DNA from: Eledone cirrhosa
Lineage: Eukaryota
Direction of reading: 5' to 3'
Assembly (NCBI GenBank): GCA_964016885.1
Contig: OZ024743.1
Location: 166,532,001-166,596,000 of the forward strand
DNA length: 64,000 nt
Both the position numbers and the translations under genes were made by a program. Below are positions 12,960 to 53,416 of this stretch, piece by piece (position 1 is the first letter of the stretch; each line of letters begins with the position of its first letter). Below the pieces are notes generated by a model. The model ran no database searches. It was not told the DNA's origin and worked only from the letters and a program-made list of their open reading frames with translations.

Positions 12960-13204
12960 TACCCCCCCCCCCCCCCCCCCCATATATATGTATGTATGTA
13001 TAGTTTGGAATATCAAAAACCAAAAAGGTGAAAAACGCAGGAGTAAATGTTACAAATATTATTAGTTTCACGTTTGGTGAGAATGGAGGGATATATATAT
13101 ATATATAAATTCCGCCTGCAGGAAGTGAAACAATCATCTCATTTTTAATTAAACACTATTTAATCCATTAACTATTATTGTTATAAAAGAATTCATGCAC
13201 TCAC

Positions 13205-13248
13205 CTTGGTGTTTCATCATCATCTGCACTCTCAGAAGCATCTGTTTT
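13205..13248 (-). CDS. CANX: Calnexin tail exon: KTDASESADDDETP(R/S); the following last exon was not found in the window
   Basis: cacag/gtgagt; 44 nt, acidic, in phase with previous exon. Confidence 0.82.
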
Positions 13249-14144: not shown

Positions 14145-14393
14145 TTTTTCAACTTCAAGATTCCCCTTTAAAGGTTTTTTAGGTTTATCATCAGCTGGTT
14201 CTACTTTCTCTTCAGAACCTGAAACATTACTTCCTTCCTCTTCTTCTCCTTCTGCCTCCTCATCACCATCATCAGATTTCCTATCAGAATCTTCTTTCTT
14301 CTTGTCAGAATCATCTTTTGTTTTATCTAAGTCACCCTTAACCTTGTCATCAGGTGATACTGCATCCGTTTTCTTCCTCTCTGCAGTTTCATC
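14145..14393 (-). CDS. CANX: Calnexin acidic cytosolic tail exon: DETAERKKTDAVSPDDK...GNLEVEK
   Basis: aag acceptor, gtaagt donor; 249 nt open; KKTDA motif, D/E/K-rich. Confidence 0.92.
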
Positions 14394-15552: not shown

Positions 15553-17586
15553 TATCTATCTTCACACAATAATAACAACATCTATTTACCTATCTATTTA
15601 TCTTTGATCTATCTATTTGTCTGTCTATATCTCACTCTAACTAGCTCTCTGTCTATCTTTCACTCTCTCTGCTTGCCTCTCTACCTAAATAGATAGATGT
15701 ATAATTACCAATGTATCTATCCTCAATCAAGAACAACAACCAACAACAAAGCACAAAACTCAGACTTCTTTATTCCCATGTTAGACAATTCTTGAATATT
15801 ATTTTAATTAATAGATAAAAATCATTCATCTTTAAATTCAATAACCTGATTACACACATCACTTTAAAAAATATTTAGTCCACAGAATATAGTGCTCTAA
15901 TGAATAACTGTCGCCTACTTTTAAAGTATTTTATATACATCATATTAAATAACAGATTAGTGTAAAGCTTTGGTATAGCATTTTGATTTTTGCATGCACA
16001 CACACAACATATACATGTGCATAATATCATTGCTGTAAAGCAAGTACACGAAAGGGCTACAATGTGCCAGTGAAATGTGCTGGGGAGAACAAGGTAAACT
16101 ATATTCAATATTGAAAAGTAAAAATAATTATGCCATAGTTATAATTGTTCAGTTTAACAACCATAATTAGTGATATCAATAAAAGTGAGCAGTATTTTCT
16201 TTACACAAATGTTGAGAATTACTCAAAACTATATAATACAGTTGATTTTGATATGCAAAATGTCACATTTAACTTTTAATGTCCTGTACCACATGAAACC
16301 ACTTTAGCAACATATTCTTCAAAAGTACAAAACAGCACTATCACATTAAAAACTGAAGTCTTTATTCTAATATAAATTTTTATAACAGTCTGTCTATTAA
16401 TAAAGATACTATGAACATTTGAATTAACAAAGCTGTTTTTAGATATTTTCTGCTGAATCATTACAAATGATTTAAGAGAAGGCAAAAAAAATCCAAAAGA
16501 ACTATAAGATACATAACCTAGGTTTATATCTAATTTGTTTACTGTCACATAAAGACAGTGATATAGACAAGATTTAAACCTTGCATGCTGCCTAAAATTA
16601 TAAAAGCTGGTTTCAGATTTGGACTCATTTAAAAAAAAAAAAAGCTTTCACTGTGAACATGAAACAACTTGAATTTTTGTCAAGTTACATTGATAACAAG
16701 GCAGTCTTTGAATAAAAATCTGTATAAAATTTAGTCTAAGACAGTAATGAAAGCTTGGCCTGAGACATGAATATCACTAATTATGAACCTGTGATGCAAA
16801 AGATGACACATTGCCTGATGTAATTTTGATAGTTGCTAATTAGCATCTTGGTCTGCTAGTTGTAGCTGTTGGGCTTCATATTAAGTGAACTCTCAGGAGT
16901 AAGTCTTGTGCAGTCACAGGGAGATCACAAGGTGAGGAAGAACGACGAGGCAGCCTCAAGGATATCACCGGTCAGTAGGGCAAAAGAGTATAAGGAATGG
17001 GCTGTGTAATAAAAGCTTTTATAAAAAACCCTCTATTACGTGTTATACTTAACAGTAATTATACAATCCAGTTTCATTTTGGTAAGACTAAAGCCATAAC
17101 CTCAGAGACTACAAGATTGTAGCAACTGACAATATCTTCTTAATTATACAATTTTTTACCACAATATTGACATAACTAAACTATTGTAAATCTTTAGTGC
17201 TGTTCCACATGATTGTTTCAATGTCACACAATATATAACTATTATATGTATCTCAAAATATCTTCAATGGAATGAAAGTCAAAGAACACCCTATAAAACC
17301 ATGCCTTTGGCAGGCTTTCTCACAGCTTCCATCTATTAGATTTTATACACACAAAATATAGTTCAATCTAACCCTAGACCATGAAGCTACAAAACAAACT
17401 TCTTAACAATACAACTATGTATGTGCTGCATAATGATTACATATACAAGCAGAATACTTAAACTAGGTTTTAGATGTACACATATTTAAAACACTGGGGT
17501 AAGGAGAAGAAGCAGTGTGAATATTAGTTAGAAGTTACAACTACAACTATATAGAAAGTACTGAACAACAGAGCCACAACACATAC

Positions 17587-17739
17587 TACTACCTCTTGAT
17601 TGTCTCCTCTAGAGATAATGTAGAGAGACAGTAAAATAATCGGAATAACAATAATCATTCCATATGTTACAATTAACCAGGGACTGTCTTCAGCAGCAGA
17701 TGAAAGTTTATTCATCAACATCATGAAATAGTTGCTTTC
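17587..17739 (-). CDS. CANX: Putative alternative TM exon (B): ESNYFMMLMNKLSSAAEDSPWLIVTYGMIIVIPIILLSLYIISRGDNQE(VV)
   Basis: Acceptor ttttctgtatacag; in-frame donors gtagta (exon ends 17593) or gtatgt (ends 17587); phase 0-0; AAEDSPWL parallels calnexin AAEERPWL, with mid-helix Pro. Confidence 0.72.
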
Positions 17740-18036
17740 CTGTATACAGAAAACAAAGCCAACATAATACATGAAATCATTCAGATGGTGGTAAGTAAAA
17801 TGCTGAAAGTGAAAACCTTGCAACAGAATAGGGTTAGGGGCCAGAAATGCTGTGGTATTAAGCAATACCCAGAAATATGTTCAGAATCCAGACACTTTCC
17901 AAGAGTAGTTAGTTTTACACTGCACATGAAAACTGGAGCTTTAAAGTAGAGCCATGCTTTTTGGAAAATAAATGTAAAAAAAAACAAAACAGGGTATATA
18001 GCTGCATGCAGCAGAAACCAGCTGGCGGGGGCTTAC

Positions 18037-18165
18037 CTTTGCTGAACTGCCCACACAGCAGTAGGCAATAACAAGTACAATAGGAAGTAAAACAACAACA
18101 ATGAATACAGCCCACAGCCAAGGCCGTTCATTAGTCACATCAAGAACAGCTTGCACTACACTTTT
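18037..18165 (-). CDS. CANX: Calnexin canonical TM exon (A): KSVVQAVLDVTNERPWLWAVFIVVVLLPIVLVIAYCCVGSSAK
   Basis: tttcag/gtaagc; 129 nt, phase 0-0; ERPWLW, hydrophobic helix and juxtamembrane CC. Confidence 0.96.
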
Positions 18166-20674: not shown

Positions 20675-20821
20675 ACCAGAAATAGAAGATTTTTCTTGAA
20701 CTTGTTTCAATACAAATGTATCTTCAGTCCATTTTGTTGTTGTTGCAAGATTGTCTGTTATAAGAATATTATCAAACATAATGGCATCAGTCATAGACCA
20801 AAGCTCTAACCCAACAGCACC
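20675..20821 (-). CDS. CANX: Calnexin exon: GAVGLELWSMTDAIMFDNILITDNLATTTKWTEDTFVLKQVQEKSSISG
   Basis: ttccag/gtaagt; 147 nt; GLELWSM..FDN motif. Confidence 0.97.
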
Positions 20822-21237: not shown

Positions 21238-21312
21238 AATTGCCATCATTTGATAAGGATTCAAATCTTCAAAATAATCAGGGTTAACAATCATTCTTGG
21301 TTTCCAGATACC
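21238..21312 (-). CDS. CANX: Calnexin exon: GIWKPRMIVNPDYFEDLNPYQMMAI
   Basis: ctttag/gtaagt; 75 nt. Confidence 0.96.
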
Positions 21313-21529
21313 CTAAAGAGAGAACGACAGAGAAATATAGTGATATATATATATATATATATATATAGAAAGAGACAGAGAAAAAGGTATAACGGCAAAA
21401 ATTCAAGAGTTGAAACCAAGTTGAAACTCTTGTAATTCCAACAGAACTATAAAAATCTAATAAATAACATTGTTTCAATATAATAAAAATAAGAAAAAAG
21501 AAGTAGTAGTAGTGGTATTACTACCATTA

Positions 21530-24490
21530 CATCGAATTTAGCTGTTGCCTGGTTCTTAGGGTGCTTTTACAGGAATCTACTGTTATAAGTGTAGAAGATC
21601 ACGCCACCTAGCGTCGACTTTGGAAGCAGTCGATTAAGTTCTGACGTCAGTAGCTGAATAAACTCTCTTAGGCTTTTTGTATCTCGAAGTGAACAGACGT
21701 GTTTCCAAGCAGCGACAACACACCATGCGGTCGCAGAATAATTGAAGATCGCTAATTAATGATAATTGGCAATTACCCAACCTAGGAGCACTGATGTGAT
21801 ACCCGTTTTATAATTTGCTCTAATAAAAATGTTCACGTAACATAATCTCGAGGTATGTTCTTTTTTGTTTGATGTGCCAGCCTATACATATATTCAATTA
21901 GACTGGATGTCTGACCAACCCGCCTAAAGTGGTGACCTCCGATGATAAATCAAGAAAACGCAGCCTATTTAATTTCGCCATTCGCTTTAAATTGAAAATT
22001 GTTCGTCAATTGTCTTTCTTTCTTTCTTTCTCCAAAATGCAGCCATCTGATTGGATGCGGCGCATCACGTAAGGCCGTCTTTCCCGACCTTAACTAAATA
22101 GCATGGTTTGCTGTCGCCATATTTTTCTGCCATGAAATGATTTGACTTGTCGAGTTCGGATTGTTTTCTGCAAATTCACCGGATTATTTTCACGTACCAG
22201 ATCGGTATCCTATTCCTCATTTGCAGGATTTTGCATCCTCGTTGCAAGGTTGCAACATTTTTTCGAAACTCGATTTGATACGAGCCTACAACCAGATTCC
22301 TGTCAACAGAGACGACATCCCAAAAATGGCTATAACTACGCCATTTGGATATTTTGAATTTCTCACCATGCCTTTCGGGTTAAGGAATGCTGCTAGCACC
22401 TTCCAGTGATTTATGGATGAGGTCACTCGCGGCCTTGACTTTGTATACACAAATATTGATGACCTTCTTGTTGCTAGCTCTTCTCCAGAGCAACATTTGC
22501 GCCATCTGGACCTTCTATTTTGTCGTTTGAAGGATTACAATGTTCGGATTAATCCATCAAAATGTGTTTTGGGTTCCGAATCTCTGAATTTTTTGGGTCA
22601 CGTCATAGATGCTGACAGTATTCGACCTATTCCTGAGAGAGTTAAAGCTATAGAGGATTTGCCTCCACCAACCTCACTCCGTCAGTTGTGCCAATTCTTG
22701 GGGCTGATTAATTTTTATAGGCGGTTTGTGCCTAATTGTGCTAAGCTACTCTTCTCTTTGACGGAAACTTTGAAAAATTGCCGAAAGAAAAATAAAGACA
22801 TTTCTTTGAATGAAACTCAGCTCGAAGATTTTGAAAATGCGAAAATTGCTCTAGCCAATGCATCTTTGCTGGCTCACCCAGTGTCCAACGCTAAGCTTTC
22901 GCTTTGTGTTGATGCGTCGGATACTGCCGTGGGCGCAGTTTTACAACAAAGTAAGAATGATCAACAGCAACCGTTGGAATTTTTCTCCAGGAAGCTGAAA
23001 CCTGCCGAAACCCGCTACAGTACCTTTGGACGGGAGTTGTTAGCTATATACTTATCGGTGAAGCATTTTTCGCACATGCTTGAAGGAAGAACGTTTACTA
23101 TCTTCACGGATCACAAGCCGTTGACATTCACCTTGCAGGCAAAGGCCGACAAATACTCACCTAGAGAAACTAGACATCTCGACCTCATCTCTCAATTTAC
23201 TAATGATATTCGACTTATTCTGGGTTCTATGAATACAGCGGCCGATGCCCTGTCTCGTTTGCCGATTACTTTGATCTCATCGTCCGATGACATAGATTTG
23301 AATCGCTTGGCAGCCGATCAGCCTACCCTCGAATCGTTGGATGTTACATCGCCTGAATTTGTGAATTGCAGGATGAAATACCTACCTTTATCGACCGCAG
23401 ACAGACGGATCCTCTGCGACGTCTCTTTGGATGCGTCACGCCCTTTTGTTCCGTTGAACCATCGTCGAACTGTGTTTCTTGTTTTACACGGCATTTCTTA
23501 TCCAGTATCTTCTGCCACAGTAAAACTCATAACGGCTAGATTCTTCTGGCCAAATATGAGACGTGATATCCTGTGTTGCTTGCCAAAGATCAAAAGTTCA
23601 TTGACATATTAAGACTCCTCTAGATACTTTTAGTAACCCGGACGCCCGGTTTCGCCACATTCATGTGGACATTGTGGGACCTTGGCCAATCAGCGGTGGT
23701 CATAATTACTTATTGACTGTTATCGATCGTTTTTCGCGATGGCCTGAAGCCATCCCGTTGAGGGATATCACTGCTGAGACGACAGCGTGTGCCCTTGTGT
23801 CTGGATGGATCGCTCAATATGGAGTACCAACGTCAATTACCACGGACCGTGGAAGGCAGTTTGAATCAAATATCTTCCATGAATTAACGAAGATCATCGG
23901 CGCTAAACGCATCCGAACGACTGCATATCATCCTGCCTCTAATGGAATGGTGGAGCGTTTCCACCGACAACTGAAAGCCGCTCTACGGACTTCTCTTGAC
24001 TCTACGTGTTGGAGTGAGTACCTCCCTATTGTGTTGTTGGGGATTCCGTCAATAATAAAGGAGGACCTTGGGTTCTCCCCTGCCAAATTGTTATATGGTG
24101 CTCCTCTAGCGTTACCTGGGCAAATGCTTGCCTCTGTCGATTTTGCTGAACAAGATCCACTTTCCTACGTATCCCGTCTGCGTTCTTATTTTCAGGACCT
24201 GCCACCGATGGATACGAGGAAGCAAACTGTAAAATCTGCAGTCCCGAGGGATATTGCCTCGTGGACCCATGTGTTTGTGAGAAACCATGCTGTGAGAACA
24301 CCTCTCACACAACCATACTCTGGACCCTACCGTGTATTAGCTCGTTCAGAGAAACATTTCACTGTAGACATTAAGGGTTCCAGAGAGACGGTTTCGATTG
24401 ATAAACTCAAACGAACACATTTGGATACAGATGCTATCACACCTCAGCCACAAACGGCCCCGTCTTTTTCTTTCGCGCACACACCTGCTA
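21530..24490 (+). mobile_element. Truncated Gypsy LTR retrotransposon (partial 5' LTR, PBS, gag/PR deleted, RT-RH-IN, no 3' LTR)
   Basis: PBS tggtgacc at about 21930; [44 protein letters not shown]. Confidence 0.92.
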
Positions 24491-24581
24491 TGGCAGTCCT
24501 AAAAAGAGTTATGGATACAGCCCCTGCCCCCTCTTCAAGTAAACTATAATAAAAAGGAAAGAAAAACAAAACCCAACTCAC

Positions 24582-24697
24582 CTGGTAATTTGGATTGTCA
24601 ATCATTGGAGACCTCCATTTCCCCTTGTATTTAGGGTTATCAATCATACCCGCTTTCCATTCACCACAACCAGAGGCGTCTGCACATTTTGGGTTAG
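24582..24697 (-). CDS. CANX: Calnexin exon: (S)[38 protein letters not shown]
   Basis: atag/gtgagt; 116 nt; calnexin-specific C..GCG insert plus type-2 repeats. Confidence 0.97.
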
Positions 24698-25084
24698 CTA
24701 TATTAAAAAAAAAAATTATACCACTCATTATGAAGAAAATATATTTTATGTACCATATTTCTTTGTGTACAATACTATCTCTATTTCTGAAGCTAAAAAA
24801 CCAATAAAGTCATCATCATTTGATGTCTGCTTTCTATGCAGGCATGAGTTGAATGGGTTGTCACAATTGAAGACTAGATGATTCAGAAAGACTTTATTTG
24901 CTTATACATTCCATATTTGGAATGGCTTCTATAGCTAGATGTCCTTCCCAATGCCAAACATTGTACAAACTACTGAGTGCATTTTATTTTGGTACCAGCA
25001 CTGCCACTGTACAGTGTACTGGATGAAGAGTTGAGGAAGTAAAAAAAGATCTAAAGAGAATGACAGATGTTAGTAATTACTTAC

Positions 25085-25125
25085 AGATCAATGGAGCTTC
25101 CCATTCACCATCCATATCATCATCC
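25085..25125 (-). CDS. CANX: Calnexin exon: DDDMDGEWEAPLI
   Basis: tttag/gtaagt; 41 nt; P-arm tip DMDGEWE. Confidence 0.96.
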
Positions 25126-26026
25126 CTAAATGACAAAAAAAGGAAGAGTAAAATACCATCTGGTCTGAATTTAAAATAATATGAAACATCATCGTTTTTA
25201 CGATGACTTTTCCATGCTGGCATGGGAATTTTTGAAGTAATGTTTAACAGCTGGATACTGTTCCTGACAACACACAGCTAAATAAAAATAATACAAACAT
25301 CCTGATATTAAATGAGAACATTTTAGTTAATAATTGATCTTATATAATTTTTAAATTCTTAAAATGATTTGTTCAAAATATTGTAAAATTTAATGACTGC
25401 CTATTTCTTTTCAAATTACTGTTTCCACTGTTCAAGTTGTTATAGAAGGCCAATAACATCAGTTCAGTATATAAACAAGCCACATCATTATCATCTTACA
25501 TCCATCTTTTCATGCTTGCATGAGTTAGATGGGTTTTTTCCATCACAGTCTCCGTCAAGTTGTTGTGTTCTTTTATCTCCTCTGTGAGGTTGAGATCAGC
25601 TCTTACCACCCCCACTCAGTTTTTCTTCTTTTGTAGTTTCTTCTAACAATCGTTATCCATACACATTACATATCCTCACCAGCATAATCTCTCTGAATCT
25701 GATAACACTCATGCTCGGTTTTTTCCTCAGCTCATCCATGCTACATCTTTCATGTACGCTAACATTACACATCCATCAGAGCATACTTGCTTTGTTTCTC
25801 TTTAGCCTTCGCATATCCTCTGAAATCATTGTCTTTGTCTTACTGTAAAAGTGGTTAGTGATATGAAGGGCATCCAATCTGAAAAACCCAGCCTTAATAT
25901 GAAAAGCATGACCAATATGATTTCCATTAATTGCATACACGGGGCTAACATTAATTATGTTAGTGCTGTGCATGGTAGTGGGGTGGCTAGAGTAGCCATG
26001 AGCGAGAACCCCTGGACTGCCATTAA

Positions 26027-28461
26027 CCCTTTAGCATTCAAACCGACAAGATTATGTCCCCTTTCATTTATTCAAACCGACAAAAACCGACATTTAATAC
26101 TACATGGAGATCTCCTTCTAAAAATAGACATTGACATCATCGAAATCTCGTCAATTCGAGATTACTGCGAGATAAAGCCCTTACGCGCGAAAATTAACTC
26201 TTAGTATAGTTAAAGAATTTGCGATAACACGTGTTTTTAACGTTGAAAGTGTAACATGGCTTTCGAAAGTAGCGACAACGAATTTGAAGGTTTTACGTCC
26301 GACGACATTCGAGATCAAAAAGAAACAGAAGATAATATCAGTGATTTATCTTCAAACGAATCAGATATATCTGATGATGATGATAGTCACTTTGAAAGTG
26401 AAAGACACCATTGAAAAAACACCAACGTGGTTGAAAGAAACAACACCGATACATGTTTCGGATTTTACTTAAAATATTGGACCACAACACACATTACCAC
26501 CCGATGCTAAAGCACTGGATTATTTTTTTTAATTTTTACCACAAACTTTCTTCGAAGTTGTGGCAGAAGAGACAAATCGCTATGCACAACAACAGATTTC
26601 TAATATCGGAAAACCCGATCTGTTATGGCGTCCGACAGATTCTGCCGAAATGAAAGCGTTTTTTACCATAAACATTGTTTGGTATTAAACAATTTCCACG
26701 ACTGTGGAATTATTGGAGTACTGATATAAGGTTTGGTGACCCTTATATATCTAGTATTATGGCAAAAACGAGATTCATCAAATAAAACCAGTATTTGCAT
26801 CTGGTTGATACTTCAAATGCCCCTGGTAGAAATGAATCAAATTACGACCCACTGTACAAAGTATGACCATTAATTGAAATGTTGTCAGAAAAATATAAAA
26901 GTGTGTATATACCTGGAAAAAATCTTAGTGTTGATGAAGCTATGATTGGGTATAAGGGTAGGGTTAATTTCAGACAGTATATGCCAGCTAAACCCACCAA
27001 ATGGGGCATCAAAGTGTGGGAACTGTGTGAATTGGACACAGGATACTGTGTGGTCGCTGACTCAACCCTTCCACTTTCAACAGACATATATATTTTGACC
27101 GTTTTTTTTTCTTCGGTGCTTTTAGCAGAGAATCTTGCCCTTGTAAATACATACACCTGCGGCACAATAATGAGCAATCGGAAAGGGCTACCCCAAGAAA
27201 TAAAAGTTGCGAAACTGAAAAACAGAGGGGACATTCTCCAAATGCAAAAAGAGAACATGTTAGCCACAGTGTTCAAAGACAAACGGCAAATTTTGTTCCT
27301 GAGTTCTAACCAACAATCAGGTGTTGGGGCTAAGGGTAGACCTTTGGTTAACCTCTCCTACAATAAATATATGGGTGGGGTTGACAAATCTGACCAGTAC
27401 TGTGCTTATTACCCAGTTGGGCGCCCTGGAAAGAAATGGTGGAGATACATCTTGTGGTTTTTAGTGAATTTAACCCTTGTGAATTCTTTTATTGTATTTA
27501 CTAAAAGCTACAAGGACCCGCCACCACCAAAGGACTACTGTCATATGAAGTTTTGCGTGGACATTGCATCCCAGCTACATGGAGGATATACTTCTCGCAA
27601 ACACAAAGCTGGGAAAAAAAATCAAAATTAGCAGTGGTTCACAATGAAAATATTGATTTTCATAAAGTGGAGAGAATTGATGGTAGGAGGAAGGTTTGCT
27701 GATTGTGCTCTTTGCAAAAGAGAAAAACTGTTAAAGGTTACGCAATCCAAACCCTATTTATTTGTTCCTTTTGCAAAGTACCATTATGTAAAGGGTGCTT
27801 TGGGCAGTATCACGATAGAAATATTGTCTGACAATATTGAAAACAATATTTTAAAAATATATTAGAACACATATACAAAAACACCTGCATTCACCTGTGT
27901 TACACCTGTTAATGAACTTATATATTGGGAACATTCTGTTACGTAAATTTACACCGTACATTGTGTAAGAGTACATTGCCAATATTATTTTGACTGGTGA
28001 AAAGGTTTTATACATTTTTTTCAATAAAAATATTTGCCTGGAATGTAGAGAAAGACTGATTGTACTGATTACACCTGCATTTTTAATTAATTCACCTGTT
28101 CGGAATACTGCTAGAATTGAAATCAGCATCTAGATCATTATTGGATTTTTTTGCAACAAATCTAACAGGTAAGGCAGATAAAGTTTAAATTTTTGTGTTT
28201 ATCCATAAAGTTATTACCTTTACACCTGTTAATTAATTTCACCTGCCCATAAAAGTCAAATTTAACAAAAAAAAAATCAGGTAAAAATATATAATTGTAA
28301 ATTATAGTTATTTAAACATCTGACAAAATTTCAAGTCTGCACATAGAAAATTAAAGTAATTACAAACAAATAAAATTGATAACCCTCTTGAGTATAATTA
28401 AGTGAAAATAATGCGAATAGATGAACATGACATTTGACAATTCAATGTGAATGCTAAAGGG
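26027..28461 (+). mobile_element. piggyBac (PGBD4-like) transposon, decayed transposase
   Basis: TTAA on both sides; TIR ccctttagcattca; VDEAM, YMPAKPTKWGIK, YNKYMGGVDKSDQ; Cys-rich C-terminus. Confidence 0.95.
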
Positions 28462-28469
28462 TTAAACAA

Positions 28470-31380
28470 TCACACAACCATCTTCTCTTTCAGGTACATA
28501 GAACCCCTACCCAAGGAAGTAACAACAACTGTCAAGGTACAAATTTCAGGACTGCCACTCCCAATGTTGGTATCCTGAAAGGCAGATCAGGTGAAATTGT
28601 GGAGCTATTAAAAAAAAGAGGAGTAGATGTATGCTGTGTACAAGAAGCGAGATGAAGGGGTGCGTCAGCAAGAATAATCCCGGGCAAGCAGCTTAGATAT
28701 TACTGGGTAAGAAATGACAATGTGGTAGGAGGTGTAGGCATCTTACTAGTTGAGAAATAGTTAGAGGTAGTTAGAGTAAGTGACAGAATCATCAAGCTTA
28801 GATTAACTGTAGGAAATAGACTGGTGACAATTATATCTACCTTTACAGACAGGACTGGGTAAAGAGCAAAAGGAGAGGTTCTATAAGGAACATTTACAGA
28901 CAACTTCAGGTGTTTACGAAAAAGACCTCATCATCCTGGCAGGCAACTTCAATGGACATGTGGGACAGTACCAGGATGGATTCAGCGGAGTTCATGGCGG
29001 CTATGGTTATGGCTCAAGGAACGAAGATTGACTGAGACTCTTAGAATTCTGTGATGCAAATGAAAACCATTTGCAACATAAATTTCAGGAAATCCACTAA
29101 TCATCTGATCTCATATCAATCAGGCAAACACATAAGCCAAATTGATTACTTACTTGTAAGACAAAGAGATAAATGGACTGTAATAAATACTGGGAAAGAA
29201 TGCACTGTCCAGAACAAGTTAATCATTAGTGACATCAATATAAAGACAAGACGGAAAAAGTCATGCAAGAAAATATGGAGACAGAGGGTTTGGAAACTAA
29301 AGGACCTTTTGATTAAATATAGGTTTAGAAAGGCCCAACAGGATGCACTTGATGAGAGGGATGACAAACTAGATACATATAATGTAGAGGACAACTGGAA
29401 ATTATTACGCAACAACCTTTCGCGAACTACTGACAAGACTTGCCGCTGGAGTAAAGGACCAGCCAGACAGGGGGTGACCTGGTAGTGGAATGGCACAGTG
29501 GATACAGCCAAGAGACAAGCGTGGAAAGACTGTAAAAATTGGGTAGCAGAAACTGGTACCAGGTAGTTAAGAAAGAAGCTCGATGGCAGGTATACACAGC
29601 TCAGAGAGGGACTGAAAGTAAATTTGGCAATGTCTTGAAATGCAACAACCAGAAATGTGAAGTATTCCGTATTGCAAGGCCGTGTGTTAGTATACATCGA
29701 AATGTTGTTGGGGAAAAACGTATTAGAAATGATGGTGTACTTAGCACCACTGATGCCCAAAAGAAAGAGGCCTGGAAATGTTACTATGAGAGAATAATTG
29801 TTTCTACTTTTTGGCACAAGGCCGGCACAAGGCCAGCAATTATCCCAGTGTATTACTGGTACTTTATTTTATCAACCCCATAAGGATGAAAGGCAAAGTT
29901 AACCTCGGTGGGATTTGAACTCAGACCATAAAGGGACATAACTTTTTTGCTGCAAAGCATGGCGTCCGACCCTCTACCGATACTGCCAATCCACCACCGT
30001 TACTATGAGAGAATAATGAATGCAGACAATGAATGGGAGGGAAAGGAAGGGCCAGCTTCTGAAGTTGATAGTTTTAGGGTCAAAGACACAATCAAGGAGA
30101 TGAAGATGGGTAAAGTAGCGGGACCATGAGAGATAGTTGCTGAGATGCTAAAGCATTGGGAGAGGCAGGAGTGAAACTAGTAACCCGCATAGTAAATCAA
30201 ATAGTACATGACGGAGTCATATCAAATGACTGGTGCAGCAGTACAATCATAAATTGCTACAAGGGCAAAGGTGATGCTCTAGAAAGGAGCAACTATAGAG
30301 GAATAAAACTAATGGACCAAGTTATGAAAGTGACAGAAAGAGTTATAGCACATCTAATTAAGGAAGGAGTCAAATTAGATGAGATGCAGTTTGGATTCAT
30401 GCCTGGGAAAAGTACTACAGATGCCCTCTTCCTAGTGAGGCAACTACAAGAGAAGTTCCTAGCCAAAAATAAGCCACAAAATTTAGCTTTTGTTGATCTA
30501 GAAAAGGCCATTGACAGGCTATCTCGATCTAACATCTGGTAGTCCTCAAAGAAATTAGGTGTAGAAGTATGGCTTGTGAAAGCAGTGCAAGCTATGTATA
30601 GAAGAGCTGTCAGTAAAGTGAGAGTAGGAAATGTTTAGTGAGGAATTCAAGGTACAGGTAGTTCATCAAGGTTCAGTTCTTAGCCCACTGCTGTTCATCA
30701 GTTCTCCAGGCCATAACAGAGGAGTTTAAAATGGGATGTCCAAGGGAACTTCTCTACGTAGATGATTTGGTCCTTATAGCTGAAACCAAAAAAAGAACTC
30801 AAAAATGAATTCCGATTACGGAAACAGACTTTGGAATCAAAAGGTCTGGAGCAAACTTAGCCAAAACTAAAGTGCTAGTGACTAGGAAAGAAGATTTGAC
30901 CCAGATTCCTTCAGGGAAGTGGCCCTACTCAATATGTAGATAAGGAGTAGGCATAAACTCCATACAATATACACAATGTAAATCTTGGGTACACAAAAGA
31001 TGTAGAGAGATAACAAGTAGACTAATAAGAAGGGAGAACTTTGTATGTAGAAGATGCACAGGAGTAATCGAAGGGAAGAGTGCTAATGATATAAACCTCT
31101 TCCAGTCACAGGAAGGATCCATAGCTTATGCTATCTGGGTGACCTAATTAACAGTGGAAGAGGGTGCGCCAAGAGTATAATAGCTGGAATAAGGATAGGA
31201 TGGAAGAAGTTTAGAGAATCACTCACTGTTGACAACGAAAGGTTTCTCCCAACATACAAAGGGACAGCTGTATGACGCCTATGTGCAGAGTGATGTTGCA
31301 TGGTAGTGAAACATGGGCTGTGACTGCAGAGGACTTGATGAAGCAACCATGCTTCGTTGGATGGGCAATGTAAGTGTAAG
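28470..31380 (+). mobile_element. Near full-length degenerate RTE LINE, with SINE inserted at about 29795-29998
   Basis: APE remnants, SQIDYLL, NCYKGKGDALERSNYRGIKL, MQFGF. Confidence 0.88.
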
Positions 31381-31523
31381 AGAAAGGCAGATCGTCGAAC
31401 TGCTGCTGCTGCTGATAATACCTTTTCTAACACCAACCCTTTTACTGCTTCATACAACATGCAGGGATATGATATATCTATTCTAAACGAGATACATATT
31501 TTGAAATATCAGAGATGACCTAC

Positions 31524-31637
31524 CAATCAGCTGGTTTTTCAGCATCAGGATCTGGAATGTCTTCTGGTTCATCATCAAGCCAACCAGCAGGTTTCACGGC
31601 ATCTTCATCAATTATTTTCTCTGGTTGGTCTTCATCC
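31524..31637 (-). CDS. CANX: Calnexin exon: [37 protein letters not shown](W)
   Basis: tttag/gtaggt; 114 nt; P repeats. Confidence 0.96.
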
Positions 31638-32189
31638 CTAAATTTACAAATATACATTATTAATACATATAGTGAATTTCTTTACAAAAGATTCATTCAA
31701 ATATGGAGGAAGTGTGTAGCATCTAGTAATATATGTTGTGCTGTGTTGGATTTCAATCAGTTTCGATGAGTGCTTCAGTTGTTTGAACAACAGGACAGCT
31801 TGAGCATAAAATTAACACGTGAGTGGCTGAGTATTCCACAGATACATATATTTTTACCGTAGTTCTCAGGGAGATTTAGCATGACACTGTGTACAGGTAC
31901 AACTCAATTTTGCCAAGTGACTGCACTGGACCCACATGAAATAAAGTTTTTGCTCAAGAACATAACCACATCACATAAGTTGCTAATACCAACCACATAA
32001 TCATTTCATGAGGTTTGAATAATACCAACCACATAACCATATATAAGGCATTAATATCAACTACATAAACATATAAAGTACTAATACCATATCATATAAA
32101 GTATTAATACTAACTACATAACCATATAAAAGGTACAAATACTACCAATATTGCCATATAAAGTATTAATACTAGCCATATAACAATAT

Positions 32190-32520
32190 CATCATCATTT
32201 CATTTTACGTCCACTTTTCCCTGCTTGCAAGGGTGGGACGGGAACCGATTCTGGCTTGATTTCTACAGCTGGATGCCCTTCCTAACACCAACCTCATTTA
32301 CAGTGAGTGCTGGGTGCTTTTTTTCCGTGGCACCTCCACGACCACTTTGCAGTGGAATGATAGGGACCCCAGTCCCTATCATCTCATTTCTACAGCTGAG
32401 TAAACTGGAGCAATGTGAAATAAAGTACCTTGCTCAAGGAAACAACACATCACCCGGTCTGAGAATTGAACTCACAACCTTTCGATTGCAAGGCCAATGC
32501 TCTAACCACTAAGCCATGTG
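32190..32520 (-). mobile_element. tRNA-derived CORE-like SINE with RTE-derived tail; second copy at about 34185-34500
   Basis: A box tggcttagtggt, B box gagttcaatt; tail cccgtcccacccttgcaag..ggacgtaaaatg matches the RTE 3' end at about 42826-42880. Confidence 0.8.
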
Positions 32521-32851
32521 TCTCCATTGTATAAGGTATTTGTTCAGCTAATAAGTTCCAATAATATCTACCATGATTGACTATATTTTATTCCTCTAGC
32601 ACCTATAAAATAGGAAGCAGTAAAAAAAAAGTGGAGGGTAATTTTAACAAGTGATAATAATATTTAATCAAGTGAATTGGCTAAGGTAAACTAAATATAT
32701 TTACCTTAGGACACAGTATGATTACACCCCTGAACTATTCATTTTGTACTATCTCAATATATTCACACACAATGTAATCCAGCTGTCTAACCACTGAGCA
32801 ACTTACTACATAACAAATATGAATGAAGTACAAATGAATTTAGAGAATTAA

Positions 32852-33075
32852 CCCTTTTGATGCTAACTTGGCCAAAACCAGCTCTGCTTCTCTGAAACAA
32901 AACCACCTATTTTAAATGGTTCCTATTTAAATTAAAATCTTCCAACATTTTTATATAAGAAACATATGTTAAGTTACAATCTGAGTAATGAAATAATAAT
33001 TTTAGTGAATCCCTCCAAATTCTTCAATTATTAATTGAAATATTGTATTCCATTAAAAATATGGCCACAAAAGGG
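32852..33075. mobile_element. piggyBac-type MITE (about 225 bp); related copies near 47750, 48645-48866, 62780-63010 and 63526-63755
   Basis: ttaa-cccttttg ... caaaaggg-ttga ends; shared internal ggttcctatttaaattaaaa. Confidence 0.75.
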
Positions 33076-33147
33076 TTGACAGCAAAAGATTTAGAGATTT
33101 TCTTTATCAAATTAAGACGAGGTTTTAAAAATTAAAATAAGTTTTAC

Positions 33148-33183
33148 CAATCATCAGGTTTCACTGCATCAGGATCAGCAATT
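33148..33183 (-). CDS. CANX: Calnexin 36-nt exon: IADPDAVKPDD(W)
   Basis: ttttag/gtaaaa; P-domain repeat; symmetric phase 2-2. Confidence 0.93.
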
Positions 33184-33382
33184 CTAAAAGTAGAGTGAAT
33201 AAATATATCATTGACCAAAAGTGGAATAAATGTAGGCTGTGAAAGCCATTTTAATTAAGGAACAAATTAAACAATAACATTATTAAGATACAAGCATTTC
33301 ATTATCTCAGATTAATTAAATAATTAATATGACAGAAAAATAGTATCTGTAAATGGATATTCCTTTTTAAACAATTACTCAC

Positions 33383-33457
33383 TTCTCTCTATCATCCCAG
33401 TCAGTAGGCTTCTGGTCCTTAGTATCTTCAATTTCCTTAGATGGATTAACTGGAGGT
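33383..33457 (-). CDS. CANX: Calnexin exon, P-domain start: PPVNPSKEIEDTKDQKPTDWDDRE(K)
   Basis: tatag/gtgagt; 75 nt; type-1 P repeat KPxDWD. Confidence 0.96.
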
Positions 33458-34001
33458 CTATAATAAAATAACATTAGTTATCCAAAGAGAATGTCATAAA
33501 TAACAATAGCTATTTTATATCTGTTTCCATTCATGTATAGGTTAGACAGGTCTGCAGCGGAACAGCTTTCCTCCACTTATCATGTCTTCTATGAGGCTCA
33601 GCATTTTGAGATCAGCTCCCACAACTTCACCTCAGTTTTTCCTTAGTTGTCCTGTTCCACTGCAATCTCTTGGCATTTCTTCACCCAACAACCATCACCT
33701 ATATGCATCACATGCTCATACCAGTGCAATCTTCTATCCTGCACACTACATCTGATTCCTTTTATGCCCAGTTTTTTCTTTCTTACACAAACACACACTC
33801 ACACATAAATACAGGTGTGTGTGTGTGTGCGTGCGTGCGTGCGTGTGTGTGTGATCACCCCCATTAGATTCTCTCTCCCTTCCACTCACACCATGAAATA
33901 AGGAAATTGCTCATACACATATTTTCCAAAAATTCCTGATTAGAAGCCACCATATATATATATAGAAGTGGTTACACAACAGTTAGTTCACCATACCGAG
34001 A

Positions 34002-34057
34002 ACAATTGTTTCACCTTAGCGGATCCTCATGAGGATCCGCTAAGGTGAAACAATTGT
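34002..34057. repeat. Perfect 56-bp palindrome, followed by an imperfect hairpin at about 34078-34179
   Basis: acaattgtttcaccttagcggatcctca|tgaggatccgctaaggtgaaacaattgt. Confidence 0.95.
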
Positions 34058-34784
34058 ATATAAGAACCCTAGAGCAAATATTTATTAAAATAACAGATTG
34101 AAGTTTAAGCAAAGGATCGCTGCTTTTACCCTTAACGCGATTCTTTGCTTAAACTTTAATCTGTTATTTTAATAAATATATATATCATTTCATTTTATGT
34201 CCGCTTTTTCCCTGCTTGCAAGGGTGGGACGGGAACTGATACTGGCTTGATTTCTACAGCTGGATGCCCTTCCTAACACCAACCTCATTTACAGTGAGTG
34301 CTGGGTGCTTTTTTGCCGTGGCACCTCCAGTGGAATGATATGGATCCCAGTCCCTATCATCTCATTTCTACAGCTGAGTAAACTGGAGCAATGTGAAATA
34401 AAGTGTCTTGCTCAAGGAAACAACACATCACCCGGTCTGAGAATTGAACTCACAACCTTTTGATTGCAAGGCCAATGCTCTAACCACTAAGCCATGTGCC
34501 TCCATATATATATATATATATATAAATGTAATCTGAGTTTTTCGAATATTAACAATAACATTCGATTCATTTACAATTATGCAAACAAGCCTCATTTTTA
34601 TAGACATGTCAGTAGAATGAACTCTTCATTCTTGGTTTTGTGTTGGCATGTAAACAGAAGTGCAGACACTAATGTTTCTGGGTATCATCCTTAATCAGTA
34701 CAGCTCACTGTTCACCTGCCAACTGTCAGAGCTAGTGAAAATATATGCTATTTTCTAAAATATACAGTGACTGATCAGCGACTC

Positions 34785-35435
34785 GTTGGATCTTGAGGAC
34801 TTTCCGGACAAGAGACCGAGAGACCATGTTGATACTATGGAGGACATTTGTCCTAAGCCGCCTGGACTATTGCTCCCAGCTGTGGTCACCCCATAGTGTC
34901 AAACTAACCACGGAGCTTGAGGCAATCCAACAAAGCTACACCTAGAGGATTGCAACGATGAAGGAGATAAGCTACTTGGAGAGGCTAAAAGAACTGAACC
35001 TCTATTCCTTGGAACGAAGACAGGAGAGATACGCAGTGATATACATGTGGAAAATACTGGAGGGACTAGCACCAAACTTTGGCATTGGGAGCTGGACCAA
35101 CCCCGAACAGGATGTCATTATGTGGTGTCAAAGGTCTCGTCTTCCACATCTAGAATAAGGAGCAGATATTGCAATAGCCTGGAGTTCAAGGGCCCTCAAC
35201 TCTTCAACAAGCTGCTGAGGGATCTGAGAGATCTGCATGGTGTGGACATGGATGTTTTCAACAAACATCTCGATATCTTGCTATCCAGGATCCCGGATGA
35301 GCCCACAGCAAGGCTCGAGGGAAACATAAGGGCAGCAGCAACGAACTCCCTCTTGCACCAGTGGCCAACCAATACAGGCTGGAGATAAAATGTGTGCATG
35401 GCCTCAGCCAGATGGCTGGAACAGGTAAAAGAGTA
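34785..35435 (+). mobile_element. 3' end of a CR1/L2-group LINE
   Basis: LDYCSQLWSP, SYLERLKELNLYSLERRQERY..WKILEG, GPQLFN. Confidence 0.8.
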
Positions 35436-36122
35436 ATATATATATACATATATACACATTTCTTTAAAATTGACACCCACCTAGTTTTGTCTGCCCTATA
35501 CTTGGATTTGGGGGCCTCTGTCGTATATGTATATGCACTTGTGTGTACATATGTATATATACACACCTGTATGGATCTGTGTGTGTGAGTGTATGTACAA
35601 GTCAACCAACATAGGTCTTTTTATTTCTAAACTCTCTAAGTAACTCTTACCATAATTTTCAGTATTATCACCTCACATAAATTCCTCAATTTGTATGTGT
35701 GGATGTGTGTGTGTGTCTGAGGGGGTGGGTGTGAATGTATGTGCAAGTCAACCAACATTAGTCTTGTTATATGTAAATTTTCTAGTATTCTACTCTAACC
35801 ATAAATTCCTCAATTTAAGATTGACCTGTAGTATCGAATTTCATACTATAAACCTCAATTGAATATATATCTGACCAGGAATGCTTTTTGTGAAAATCAG
35901 TCATATGGAACTATTGTCATCTTGCCTGATGGTTTGAACTTTACAACACCACCTGCCTCTTTGAGGTCAAATACCAACCCTGCTAGCATCTACTACTGAC
36001 CAATGAGAATTAAGATTATTCCTGCTGACAACATTAAATTATTCCTAACAAGCTCATATGTCCCAAGGCTCTGATACAATCAACACCATAAACACAGAGC
36101 TGGCATATCTAAGAACTGACTA

Positions 36123-36178
36123 ACTGCCTGATGAGGTCATAGCCACTCAATGGCTATCATCGAAATATATATAGCAGT
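36123..36178 (+). ncRNA. Minimal type I hammerhead ribozyme (Penelope/retrozyme type)
   Basis: Stem I ACTGC/GCAGT; core CTGATGA and GAAA; stem II GGT-C-ATAGCCA[CTCAA]TGGCTAT-C-ATC; palindromic stem III ATATATAT; AUA cleavage triplet; AATAAA just downstream. Confidence 0.82.
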
Positions 36179-36219
36179 AAATAAAGGATTATGAATTCAT
36201 GCAATTGACTTATGTTTCG

Positions 36220-36254
<35 letters not shown>

Positions 36255-36309
36255 ATATGTATATATATATATGTATATGTATTTATATGTATATGTATAT
36301 ATATATATT

Positions 36310-37089
36310 CACCTCATGCTGCCGGACGAAAATGCAAGGACTCCTCTTTTCTTCAACAGAACCCCATCTCCCTCACCGCGCCCCACCGTTCCCACCCAAC
36401 AAACGCAATCAAAAACTTCAGAGTTGGTACCATGAATGTAGGCATCTTAAAAGGTCGCTCTAACGAGGTTGTAGAAATGCTTGCATGTAGAGATGTTGAT
36501 GTTTGCTGTATCCAAGAGACCAGTGGAGGGGTGGGTCTGTTAGATTCATTGTGGGTAAAAAACGATGCTATAAGCTTTTCTGGGTGGGGTAGAAATCATG
36601 TTAGCAGAAAAATGGGTAGATAATATAATATATGTGAATAGAGTGAATGACAGAATAATTAAAATAAGACTTGTCATAAATAGAACTACTGTGACAGTAA
36701 TATTGGCGTCCGCACCCCAATTCGGGCTGCCTGGCGTTATAAAAGACAGATTCTATGAGTCATTGATGCTCACTACCTCCCAAATAACCGACAGTGACTA
36801 CATAATTATTGCTGGCGACCTAAACGGTCACATTGGACAACATTGTGACGGCTATGACGGAATTCATGGAGGCTATGGGTTTGGTACTAGAAATGAGGAA
36901 GGTTCAGAATCCTGGAATTCTGTAACGCAAATAACCTAACTCTCTGTAACACTAACTTCAAAAAACGAGACAATCACTTGTACACCTATAGATCAGGGGA
37001 ACACACCAGTCAGATTGATTATATCCTCACTAGAAGACGTAATAGAGTGTCTGTTGTAAACACTAAATCCCTCCCCCATGAAGAATGCA

Positions 37090-37090
<1 letters not shown>
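36310..37090 (+). mobile_element. RTE LINE 5' part (APE endonuclease)
   Basis: FRVGTMNVGILKGR, DVCCIQET, IIAGDLNGHIG, SQIDYIL. Confidence 0.88.
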
Positions 37091-40120
<3,030 letters not shown>

Positions 40121-40462
40121 GACACTACGGCTTAATACGGGATGTTTGTTTACAAACACACCGAGCATTATAATAAATGTTTGGTGAATCCATACGTGCA
40201 TATATATATGTGTGCATGTATGTATATATATATATATACATACTACTGTACGTCGGTATACATATATGTATGTACGTGTACATACTTATATTTAAGTAAC
40301 AGCCGTACTAAGAGTGGGAAATGAAATATCGTTTCATTTTTTCCGTTTATACATATATATATATACACATATATAGTAATAATAATAAAATTGAAGACTA
40401 AAATCCAAAGAGGGCTCGATAAGGAAAATATATATCAAATATATAAGAACCGTAGAGCAAAT

Positions 40463-41278
40463 ATTTATTAAAATAACAGATTAAAGTTTAAGCAAAGAAT
40501 CGCTGCTTTCACCCTTAACGGGATCTTCTGAAACTAACAGTGTACTTGTTTTAGTTGACTTACGTCTCCGAACATTTGTGTATTTATATGTAGATATGCG
40601 TGTGCGCTTGTTATATACGTATTTATTTACTTATATACGTTTATATAATTATTTATTATTTGTACACAAGCATACACACACACACACATATTTATATGTG
40701 CGTGGTTTTGTATACCCATGGTAAGGTTTTGCGTATGCTTGTGTATTTACGTATCTGTTTGCGTGTATGTATTTATTTGTTTCTATTACTTCTGTATTGT
40801 ATTTATTTACTTTGTTCTTAACTCTGTAGCGGAGATTCATTTGGTCTCCTAGTTAGAATTTAGTCTACGATTTCTGCTATACCATTTACGTGGTTTTGTC
40901 TTTGCGTGCTATTGTTCTCCACGCTCCACATACGACTTATTATCTTTGTTTTTTCGTTCATTGCCAGAGAACGTCTCTATGCACCACCTAAGAGAACATT
41001 AGTCTACGACCTCTTTTATACCATAAACGTGGTTTTGTCTTTGCGCGTAATTGTTTTTCACCGCTCCTATTAATGACGTATTATTCGTTTTTTCCCGTTC
41101 TTTACTAGCGAACGTTACCACGAACCAAAGTATCGTCTTCCCGTCTTCCTCCGGTTGCAACGTTTTTTGAAATATCCAGTTCTGTGTTTACAGATTGACT
41201 TTGTTAGTTTCAGAAGATCCCGTTAAGGGTGAAAGCAGCGATTCTTTGCTTAAACTTTAATCTGTTATTTTAATAAAT
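40463..41278. mobile_element. Non-coding element bounded by 77-bp inverted repeats (40463-40539 / 41202-41278)
   Basis: The arms are reverse complements; the same arm sequence forms the hairpin at about 34078-34179. Confidence 0.75.
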
Positions 41279-41438
41279 GTACACATATATATATACATAT
41301 ATACACACATATATATACATATATACACATATATATACACATATATATATACATATATACACATATATATATATACACACACATATATATATATATATAC
41401 ATATATACACACATATATACATACATATATACATATAT

Positions 41439-41489
<51 letters not shown>

Positions 41490-41491
41490 TA

Positions 41492-42880
41492 AAGGGTCAA
41501 ACTAGATGAGATGCAGTTTGGTTTTGTGCCTGGGAAGAGTACAACAGATGCCCTCTTCTTGGTGAGACAAATGCAAGAGAGGTTCTTAGAGAAGAATAAG
41601 CCACTATACTTAGCCTTTGTTGACCTAGAGAAGGCCTTTGATAGGGTACCCCGATCTGTCATCTGGTGGTCCCTAAGGAAGCTAGGTGTTGAGGAATGGC
41701 TTGTGAGGACAGTGCAAACTTTGTACAGAGGTACTCTCAGTAAAGTCAGGGTAGGAATGGAGTTTAGTGAGGAATTCCAGATACAAGTAGGAGTACATCA
41801 GGGTTCGGTCCTCAGCCCGCTCTTGTTCATTATAGTCCTCCAAGCCATAACAGAGGAGTTTAAGACTGGCTGTCCATGGGAACTTCTCTATGCTAACGAT
41901 CTGGCTCTTATAGCAGAATCAGTAGAGGAGCTAGAGAATAAATTCCGGCTATGGAAACAGCAGTTGGAAGCAAGAGGACTGAGAGTAAATCTAGCTAAGA
42001 CAAAAGTGTTGATGAGTAGAAAGGAGGACAAAACCCTGATTCCGTCAGGGAAATGGCCATGTTCGATATGCAGAAAAGGAACTGGCATAAATTCTATAAA
42101 ATGCACACAATGCAGGTCCTGGGTACACAAGAGATGTAGCGGGATAGCAGGCAAACTAACAGGTAGGGAGAAATATGTATGCAGTAGATGTACAGGGAAA
42201 TTAGACAGTAGAAGTCGCACTGATAGACACATTTTTCAAATGCGAGAGGGCGCTATAGAAGTGGTGGATAGCTTCCGGTACCTAGGAGATCAGATTAGCA
42301 TGGGAGGAGGGTGTTCCGAGGCCATAGTATCTAGAATAAGGACGGGTTGGAAGAAGTTTAGGGAGCTGCTTCCTGTTGACGAAGAAGGGTTTCTCCCTGC
42401 GTACGAAAGGCCGGTTGTATGATGCCTGTGTGAGGAGCGCGATGCTGCATGGTAGTGAGACATGGGCAGCAACCGCAGAGGATATGCGACGGCTGGAGAG
42501 AAATGAGGCAAGCATGCTCCGTTGGATGTGCAGTGTAAATGTGCGTGAACGACCCAGCATAAATGTGTTGAGAGAGAAACTATGTCTGAGAGGGATAGAA
42601 TGTAGTGTACGGGAGAGGAGACTGAGGTGGTATGGACATGTGATGCGCATGGAGGATGACCGATGGGTGAAGAAGTGCCAGGAAATGCCAGTTGAAGGAA
42701 GACGTGGTAGAGGTAGACCACGAAAAACATGGGCGGAGGTGGTGAGAACAGACCTCAGATCATTGAAGCTCACGGTGGAGATGACGAGGGACCGTGACGA
42801 GTGGAGAGATGCTGTGCTGAATAAGACCCGTCCCACCCTTGCAAGTAGGGAAAAGCGGACGTAAAATGATGATGATGATG
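41492..42880 (+). mobile_element. Young 5'-truncated RTE LINE (RT, PHD-like finger, C-terminus, (gat)n tail)
   Basis: 303-aa + 162-aa ORFs separated by one 2-nt deletion; YAND in place of YADD. Confidence 0.93.
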
Positions 42881-43189
42881 ATATATATACATCGTCATCC
42901 TTTAACGTCCACCTTCCACGCCAGCATGGTTTGGACTGTTTTGTCCTAATTGAGGAATGATTGGTCGGGAGACCGTGTCTCGTATTTACAGAACTGTTTC
43001 TGGCAGGTTTTCTACGGCTGGAAGCCCTTCCTAACACCAATCACATTTACAGTGTGGACTGGGAGACTTTTTACCGTGTCTCCTAAACGACCACTTTACA
43101 GTGGACGGAAATGGGAGGATGGAGTAGGGCGTGTGGGGTGGGGTGTACATTGGGGTTAAGAGGTGCCTACTGACTAGGTTTAAGTTTGT

Positions 43190-45065: not shown

Positions 45066-45094
45066 AATATATATATATATATATATACATATAC

Positions 45095-45872
45095 ATACAA
45101 TGTAGGTCCTGGGTACACAAGAGATGTAGCGGGATAGCAGGCAAACTAACAGGTAGGGAGAACTATGTATGCAGTAGATGTACAGGGAAATTAGACAGTA
45201 GAAGTCGCACTCATAGACACATTTTTCAAATGCGAGAGGGCGCTATAGAAGTGGTGGATAGCTTCCGGTACCTAGGAGATCAGATTAGCATGGGAGGAGG
45301 GTGTTCCGAGGCCATAGTATCTAGAATAATGACGGGTTGGAAGAAGTTTAGGGAGCTGCTTCCTCTGTTGACGAAGAAGGGTTTCTCCCTGCGTACGAAA
45401 GGCCGGTTGTATGATGCCTGTGTGAGGAGCGCGATGCTGCATGGTAGTGAGACATGGGCAGCTACCGCAGAAGATATGCGACGGCTGGAGAGAAATGAGG
45501 CAAGCATGCTCCGTTGGATGTGCAGTGTAAATGTGCGTGAACGACCCAGCATAAATGTGTTGAGAGAGAAACTGTGTCTGAGAGGGATAGAATGTAGTGT
45601 ACGGGAGAGGAGACTGAGGTGGTATGGACATGTGATGCGCATGGAGGATGACCGATGGGTGAAGAAGTGCCAGGAAATGCCAGTTGAAGGAAGACGTGGT
45701 AGAGGTAGACCACGAAAAACATGGGCGGAGGTGGTGAGAACAGACCTCAGATCATTGAAGCTCACGGTGGAGATGACGAGGGACCGTGACGAGTGGAGAG
45801 ATGCTGTGCTGAATAAGACCCGTCCCACCCTTGCAAGCAGGGAAAAGCGGACGTAAAATGATGATGATGATG
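45095..45872 (+). mobile_element. Young RTE 3' fragment, nearly identical to 42105-42880
   Basis: Open frame to the stop ..LASREKRT*, then (gat)n. Confidence 0.93.
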
Positions 45873-45875
45873 ATA

Positions 45876-46742: not shown

Positions 46743-46745
<3 letters not shown>
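45876..46745 (+). mobile_element. Older RTE 3' fragment
   Basis: ESRGLRVNLAKTK..RRLRWYGHV, with stops. Confidence 0.85.
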
Positions 46746-46773
<28 letters not shown>

Positions 46774-46779
46774 ACCGCC

Positions 46780-47140
46780 CGGCCCACACTCTAAAGTGGT
46801 CTTGTAGGCGTCACAACAAAAAGCACCCAGTTCACACTGCAAAGTAGTCGTGTAGGTGTCACGACAAAGGGCTCCCAGTTCACTGCAAAGTGGTCGTGTA
46901 GGTGTCACAACAAAGAGCACCCAGTCCACACTAAAGTGGTCATGTAGGTGTCACAGCAATGAGCACCCAGTACTCACTGTAAATGAGGTTGGCGTTAGGA
47001 AGGGCATCCAGCAGTAGAAATCAAGCCAGAATCAGTTCTGTGTGAGCAAGACATGGTCACCTGACCTGGCATTGCTCACAACAGGACAACTCGTTTAATC
47101 CATGCTAGCACGGAAAAATGGACATTAAACAGTGATGATG
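46780..47140 (+). repeat. RTE-tail SINE headed by about 4.5 tandem 43-45-bp units
   Basis: Repeat unit resembling cacactgcaaagtggtcgtgtaggtgtcacaacaaagagcacccagt. Confidence 0.8.
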
Positions 47141-53385: not shown

Positions 53386-53416
53386 GGGGAGAGGGGAAAA
53401 TGTAATTTCGGCTCAC

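Follow-up and report, generated by a model that had tools for sequence, protein, structure and literature searches.

A calnexin gene in the window (the whole 64,000-nt stretch of DNA that was analysed) contains two tandem exons for its transmembrane (TM) anchor, the canonical exon A and, downstream of it, exon B, which is a true paralog of A. The reading we favor, at a probability of about 0.55, is that exon B is a conserved, Cys-free copy of the anchor that is spliced in place of A, that it belongs to an old lophotrochozoan exon pair, and that it serves as a minor alternative last exon.

Two anchor exons in one calnexin gene

The window carries most of one calnexin gene on the minus strand, as located by tblastn with O. 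sinensis calnexin, and its protein is close, but not identical, to the calnexins of Octopus and Argonauta. Membership in the calreticulin family was seen in the O. sinensis B isoform (PF00262, E = 1.5e-164), in which the luminal domain is followed by a TM helix. The features of the gene are given below; X4 denotes an RNA-like run.

21238..63873, minus strand: span with the upstream exons for the luminal domain of this gene (tblastn; boundaries approximate; 5' exons beyond the window)
20675..20821, minus strand: constitutive exon 5' of both anchors, encoding the end of the luminal domain (X4 joint and identity with O. sinensis)
18037..18165, minus strand: TM exon A, canonical anchor with juxtamembrane Cys-Cys (129 nt; both junctions in X4)
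17740..18036, minus strand: intron between A and B, 297 nt (sequence)
17593..17739, minus strand: core of TM exon B, Cys-free paralog of A (147 nt; ends at the ancestral donor position)
17524..17592, minus strand: read-through extension beyond the weak donor GAG/GTAGTA (22 hydrophobic codons and a TAA stop at 17526-17524; second GT site at 17586)
16361..16366, minus strand: first AATAAA past the B stop codon, a putative signal for intronic polyadenylation (sequence)
14145..14393, minus strand: first cytosolic-tail exon, acidic tail (AAG acceptor; X4 joint from 18037 to 14393)
13204..13248, minus strand: next tail exon, short (tblastn of O. sinensis calnexin; sequence)

The constitutive exon upstream of the anchors is identical to O. 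sinensis at 46 of 49 residues. It has one match in its own genome in a protein search, and exon B likewise has one in a DNA search. Below 13204, tblastn and pattern search within the window did not recover the last coding exon, which bears the basic C-terminal motif; it may lie beyond the window or have diverged. The acceptor of the first tail exon (14394-14396) is AAG with a weak pyrimidine tract, and its junction is present in X4.

Exon A encodes the usual anchor and ends in Tyr-Cys-Cys, the homologous Cys pair of mammalian calnexin. Exon B extends from 17739 to 17593 (147 nt) or to 17587 (153 nt), with an acceptor ending in TACAG and the donors GAG/GTAGTA and GTA/GTATGT. All boundaries of A and B are in phase 0, and the tandem neighbors are of similar length (129 versus 147 nt). 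When 1959 six-frame fragments of the window were scored with an HMM of 15 calnexin and calmegin TM segments, none from a named mollusc, exon A ranked first and exon B second (E = 2.9e-6 for B, 0.44 for the next best fragment); a Pfam search returned nothing above cut-off for either exon. The initial annotation had claimed an exon 297 nt past A with a good acceptor and 0-0 phase, and the coordinates and the HMM ranking bear this out. It was also right that B lacks the juxtamembrane Cys pair, as exon B contains no Cys up to either donor. Its two in-frame donors are both present as GT sites in frame in the window, but the second is in frame because of a 1-nt indel that separates the window from the other three octopod records.

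Comparison among octopods confirms that exon B is real and conserved. The B core is identical to three octopod orthologs at 44/49 (O. sinensis), 43/49, and 39/44 residues; conservation of the reading frame in related species had been suggested as a check, and the core is free of indels in all three of these records. As an intron control, the read-through of the upstream donor in O. sinensis gave 15/51 identical residues, with indels and a stop (P = 3e-10 against the B core, Fisher's exact test, which is generous because the control alignment decays after ~25 residues). Exon A is identical to O. sinensis at 42/43 residues, and the conservation of B is indistinguishable from that of A (P = 0.21).

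Splicing of exon B and its read-through extension

Of four unlabelled runs, one, the RNA-like run X4, contained spliced joints, and in it the main mRNA consists of the upstream exon, A, and the tail: the spliced joint from 20675 to 18165 has a depth of 176.7, and the joint from 18037 to 14393 has a depth of 232.9. No junction at B occurs among the 15 of 191 X4 joints listed, where only A junctions appear, although this cannot show that B is not used because X4 represents a single sample and rare variants are lost from contigs. An unbroken X4 contig (16761-18065) spans B at a depth of 7, like the flanking intron, versus ~180 for A.

The splicing of A is known from the X4 contigs, and the skipping of A into B from automated annotation. 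Among 14 listed members of four cephalopod clusters, two contain B, O. sinensis X3 (XP_036364191.1) and O. bimaculoides X2 (XP_052828346.1). Both of these RefSeq models join the upstream exon directly to B and skip A, and at the level of annotation the proposed use of B in place of A is thereby supported. Automated RefSeq models generally rest on RNA alignments. A third ortholog of exon B is the Logan protein P0135 (E = 1e-16). In two cephalopod-like transcript clusters, none of the 11 members showed B, and comparison of the exon B peptide with longer proteins gave no match, as clustering at 90% places the B isoform under a representative that has A. A scan of 50% representatives with exon B gave six matches, namely one octopod-type B, one A+B model from Mya, and four that are chance-like, one of which was inspected.

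The initial annotation had further expected B to be spliced onward to the tail exon, and here the annotated transcripts differ from it. Of the two junctions that it named, the one from 20675 to 17739 is found in the two RefSeq models, but the onward junction from 17593 or 17587 to 14393 is found in none of the 14 listed cephalopod members. Both B-containing Octopus models run past the B donor to a stop 22 codons on, and the acidic cytosolic tail, present in the A isoform, is absent from both annotated octopod B isoforms.

The donor GAG/GTAGTA is considered ancestral because it is located where oyster B ends, 30 residues past the PW motif in octopod and oyster B alike. It is weak, lacking both +4A and +5G, and in one ortholog the second codon encodes Ala. 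Past this donor, the stop stands 22 codons beyond the core in 4/4 octopod records (the window, the two Octopus models, and the Logan ORF). The extension in the window is separated from the other three records by +1 and −1 indels that cancel, and ~11 of its codons are read in a different frame than in Octopus. Its best 19-residue hydropathy is 3.0, which ranks second of 1271 stop-free, GT-started 22-codon stretches and is reached by 3/5121 mononucleotide and 42/1452 dinucleotide stop-free shuffles; the extensions of the other three octopod records reach 2.2-2.35, corresponding to the top 1-2% of the stretch distribution. Because the extension is so strongly hydrophobic, octopod B is somewhat more likely to be a terminal exon than a cassette, and both forms may occur. 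A single-sequence AlphaFold model of B plus the extension gave three helices (pLDDT 70.6, pTM 0.38), values too weak to weigh. Four AATAAA hexamers lie within 3.1 kb of AT-rich intron, and the one at 16366 may therefore be due to chance.

The best-surviving alternative, which we regard as possible yet rather unlikely, is that B is still a mutually exclusive cassette, spliced from GAG/GTAGTA to 14393 to give a full-length single-pass calnexin with the tail and without juxtamembrane Cys, and that the terminal models represent a retained intron. B is used as a cassette in six oysters and two nemerteans, and the arthropod exon without the Cys pair is so used in Palaemon, Macrobrachium, Oratosquilla, and a Penaeus-cluster record. 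The octopod donor occupies the ancestral position, is in phase, and retains its GT in 4/4 octopod records, and conservation falls off there, from 44/49 in the core to 13/22 in the extension (P = 0.007). Furthermore, RefSeq read-through models also exist at two certainly used donors of the same gene (O. sinensis X2 and X4), and the alternative anchor of Tachypleus is read through in RefSeq whereas its crustacean counterpart is spliced to the tail; read-through models can thus be by-products of annotation. Against this alternative, the B-to-tail junction is missing from all 14 listed cephalopod members, though oyster annotation recovers A, B, and A+B forms; the donor is weak; and the extension is unusually hydrophobic and has kept its length. 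The O. sinensis X2 and X4 models read through the donors at 14145 and 20675, and the window has stops two codons in at both, so these particular read-through isoforms are not conserved.

The proposal that inclusion of both exons would keep the frame holds, as Ostrea edulis and Magallana gigas have A+B models. Together with the Mya model, they indicate that frame does not enforce the exclusion of one exon. Among 25 of 48 inverted repeats listed for 16000-19500, there is no evident docking/selector pair at A and B. Steric exclusion is unlikely, since the 297-nt intron is too long for it, and regulated skipping appears more likely.

Distribution and age of the exon pair

The initial annotation had suggested the swap for this lineage, but the duplication is not specific to it, as the A/B pair is also present in oysters, Mya, and nemerteans, where B has cysteines. 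Separate A and B isoforms, each with a normal tail, appear in the cluster listings of six oyster species (M. gigas, with 15 of its 28 cluster members listed, M. angulata, C. virginica, O. edulis, S. cucullata, and S. echinata) and two nemerteans (Lineus and Tubulanus). Examples from automated annotation are XP_065927321.1 (B) and NP_001292307.1 (A) in Magallana gigas, XP_064636288.1/XP_064636290.1 in Lineus, and XP_074651742.1/XP_074651741.1 in Tubulanus. B with the tail is found further in Elysia marginata and in two full-length Logan proteins (P0026 and P0169), and the A+B models of O. edulis, M. gigas, and Mya arenaria all place A before B. These results refer to the 120 of 784 homologs that were listed.

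The oyster and nemertean pairs resemble the octopod pair in gene, position, A-then-B order, and B-type residues, with one exon per isoform in most models. They differ in that their B has one or two juxtamembrane Cys and is spliced to the tail, whereas octopod B lacks them and is a terminal exon in the annotation. A juxtamembrane Cys (CxC, WxC, or WCC before Pro-Arg/Lys) is present in 9/9 non-cephalopod B rows and in 0/4 octopod rows. Octopod B scored 29-31 bits on an HMM of non-cephalopod B, 17-20 on that of A, and 27-28 on an outgroup HMM. In a tree of 45 rows and 38 columns, octopod B falls within the B group on a long branch (1.18 changes per column), with support of 91/98, less than the starred threshold. 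Judging from these comparisons, octopod B is likely orthologous to the lophotrochozoan exon B; the A/B pair is likely old, and octopod B has likely lost the cysteines that oyster and nemertean B kept.

The same long branch, together with the loss of Cys and Trp residues and the weak donor, would fit octopod B as a decaying relic of the ancestral pair, spliced in as rare noise and giving a product without a role, and this agrees with X4, where no use of B was seen, and with the 11 members of the two cephalopod-like clusters, which showed no B. We consider such a relic improbable. The octopod core is indel-free, ~90% identical, far above the intron control, and not distinguishable from A in its conservation, and the same acceptor junction was recovered by two independent annotations. 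That octopod B instead stems from a duplication of A restricted to cephalopods, and came to resemble oyster B by convergence, is very improbable: in a short alignment, the AU test did not reject octopod B with all A (p-AU 0.20), but grouping with cephalopod A was borderline rejected (p-AU 0.048), A and B of the window share only 7/37 residues, octopod B is closer to non-cephalopod B (mean BLOSUM 74-77 versus 51-56), and the order of A then B is the same in Ostrea, Magallana, and Mya.

Alternative anchors were also observed in arthropods. Of five arthropod clusters examined, four include members with a different anchor in this position (Palaemon/Macrobrachium 5/6, Oratosquilla 3/4, Penaeus 1/7, Tachypleus/Limulus 1/5, Centruroides 0/4). 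The records are Palaemon X1, X3, and X4 versus X2; Macrobrachium; Oratosquilla X1, X3, and X4 versus X2; a Logan record of the Penaeus cluster; and Tachypleus X3 (arthropod calnexin records P0203-P0207, P0210, P0215-P0217, and P0222). Among six distinct alternative sequences, the Cys-Cys pair is absent from all, one Cys near the cytosolic end is present in two, and Arg stands in all six where lophotrochozoan B has Arg or Lys. These exons are therefore like octopod B in place, in the absence of Cys-Cys, and in the basic residue, and unlike it in the single Cys of 2/6 and in the tail, which the crustacean forms retain; the Tachypleus X3 model reads through. No alternative anchor was seen in Branchiostoma (0/12), Clavelina (0/4, one a fragment), or one further cluster (0/2). 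An Atlas search with the crustacean exon returned calreticulin-family clusters only.

In the best tree, the arthropod exon groups with arthropod A at 67/94, and a single origin of all alternative exons was not rejected (p-AU 0.49). The initial annotation had envisaged an exchange of the whole membrane anchor by splicing that yields palmitoylatable and non-palmitoylatable calnexins, and the crustacean form, without the Cys pair and with the tail, fits this idea better than the octopod case does. More tentatively, there may be a protostome-wide, hard-wired switch of the calnexin anchor, in which tissue-regulated splicing swaps the palmitoylated TM exon. Arthropods and octopods would each have reached a version without the Cys pair, octopods would have gone further to a tail-less, two-helix form, and each isoform would have an ER domain or a set of clients of its own.

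Predicted product and comparison with known switches

If octopod B is a minor last exon, as we favor, the upstream exon would skip A and join B, as it does in the automated models of two Octopus species, and at the weak ancestral donor the transcript would read on, add 22 hydrophobic residues, and stop; it would presumably be polyadenylated within the intron. The predicted product is an intact lectin/P-domain chaperone on a two-helix anchor, with neither the Cys-Cys site nor the acidic tail, the second helix probably leaving a 7-residue cytosolic loop. By analogy with mammalian work, this product may fold glycoproteins but lack the sorting, dependent on palmitoylation and the tail, that brings calnexin to the translocon or ER-mitochondria contacts. 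The initial description of B as palmitoylation-free is correct for the Cys-free core and uncertain for the terminal form, which might still be acylated because the read-through extension carries one Cys.

In mammals, palmitoylation of Cys502 and Cys503 by DHHC6 raises the half-life of calnexin and affects its localization to the translocon and ER-mitochondria contacts (PMC9913998; PMC8107437), and palmitoylated calnexin was reported at both the ribosome-translocon and ER-mitochondria contacts, according to the review (PMC9913998). Mice without the C-terminal domain of calnexin are described there as having no motor defect (PMC9913998; PMC8107437). The mammalian palmitoylation switch is a reversible modification, and octopod exon A carries the homologous Cys pair. 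We found no evidence of palmitoylation of an invertebrate calnexin; in the accessible text of a paper on the fly palmitoylome, calnexin is named only in the introduction and references (PMC9374236).

The exchange of a TM exon is itself a known kind of switch. An alternative choice of membrane-targeting ends is familiar from KRAS4A and KRAS4B, in which alternative 3' exons encode a palmitoylatable or a non-palmitoylatable end. These differ from calnexin A and B in that they are lipid anchors on a soluble GTPase and involve no TM helices. Another case is exon 17 of Drosophila Dscam1, described as two mutually exclusive TM exons, tandem alternatives that, like calnexin A and B, swap the whole transmembrane segment (PMC3364881); unlike calnexin, Dscam1 is a cell-surface receptor rather than an ER chaperone, and both of its exons are cassettes.

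For calnexin, a full-text literature search, with most subscription journals outside it, found no published account of alternative TM exons, and no paper was found on the oyster and nemertean A/B isoforms. In the main text of the calnexin review, neither "splic" nor "isoform" occurs (PMC9913998); isoforms and splicing go unmentioned in the available text of a scallop paper (PMC9680081), and the six supplementary files of PMC7954323 gave no calnexin match. The A/B isoforms are already in databases as unremarked automated annotations. Thus, the switch is undescribed for calnexin in the literature searched, and what octopods add to it is the loss of Cys and probably that of the tail. The usual picture is of a single calnexin protein that reversible palmitoylation and phosphorylation of the tail direct to its location. 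An old, conserved swap that takes away the Cys pair, and probably also the tail in octopods, would offer natural isoforms with which to test the role of the anchor. If the protostome-wide switch exists, these isoforms would be natural counterparts of the Cys and tail mutants studied in mammalian cells. Expression studies of invertebrate calnexin may have measured mixed isoforms.

Repeats and ORFs that resemble mobile elements were observed in the window. A ~3.3-kb AT-rich block of simple repeats (37000-40300; GC content 16% in 38001-40000) lies in a calnexin intron. Long ORFs judged by eye to resemble LTR-retrotransposon reverse transcriptase/integrase lie in pieces, antisense, in introns (22410-24546 and 55322-59100, both plus strand), and ORFs that resemble DNA-transposase fragments, again by eye, are present at 26867-27628 (plus strand) and 60502-62077 (minus strand). 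Very high-copy repeats are located at 19644-20105, 14680-15100, and 18489-18719, with contig depths of 1e4 to 1e6 in DNA-like runs.
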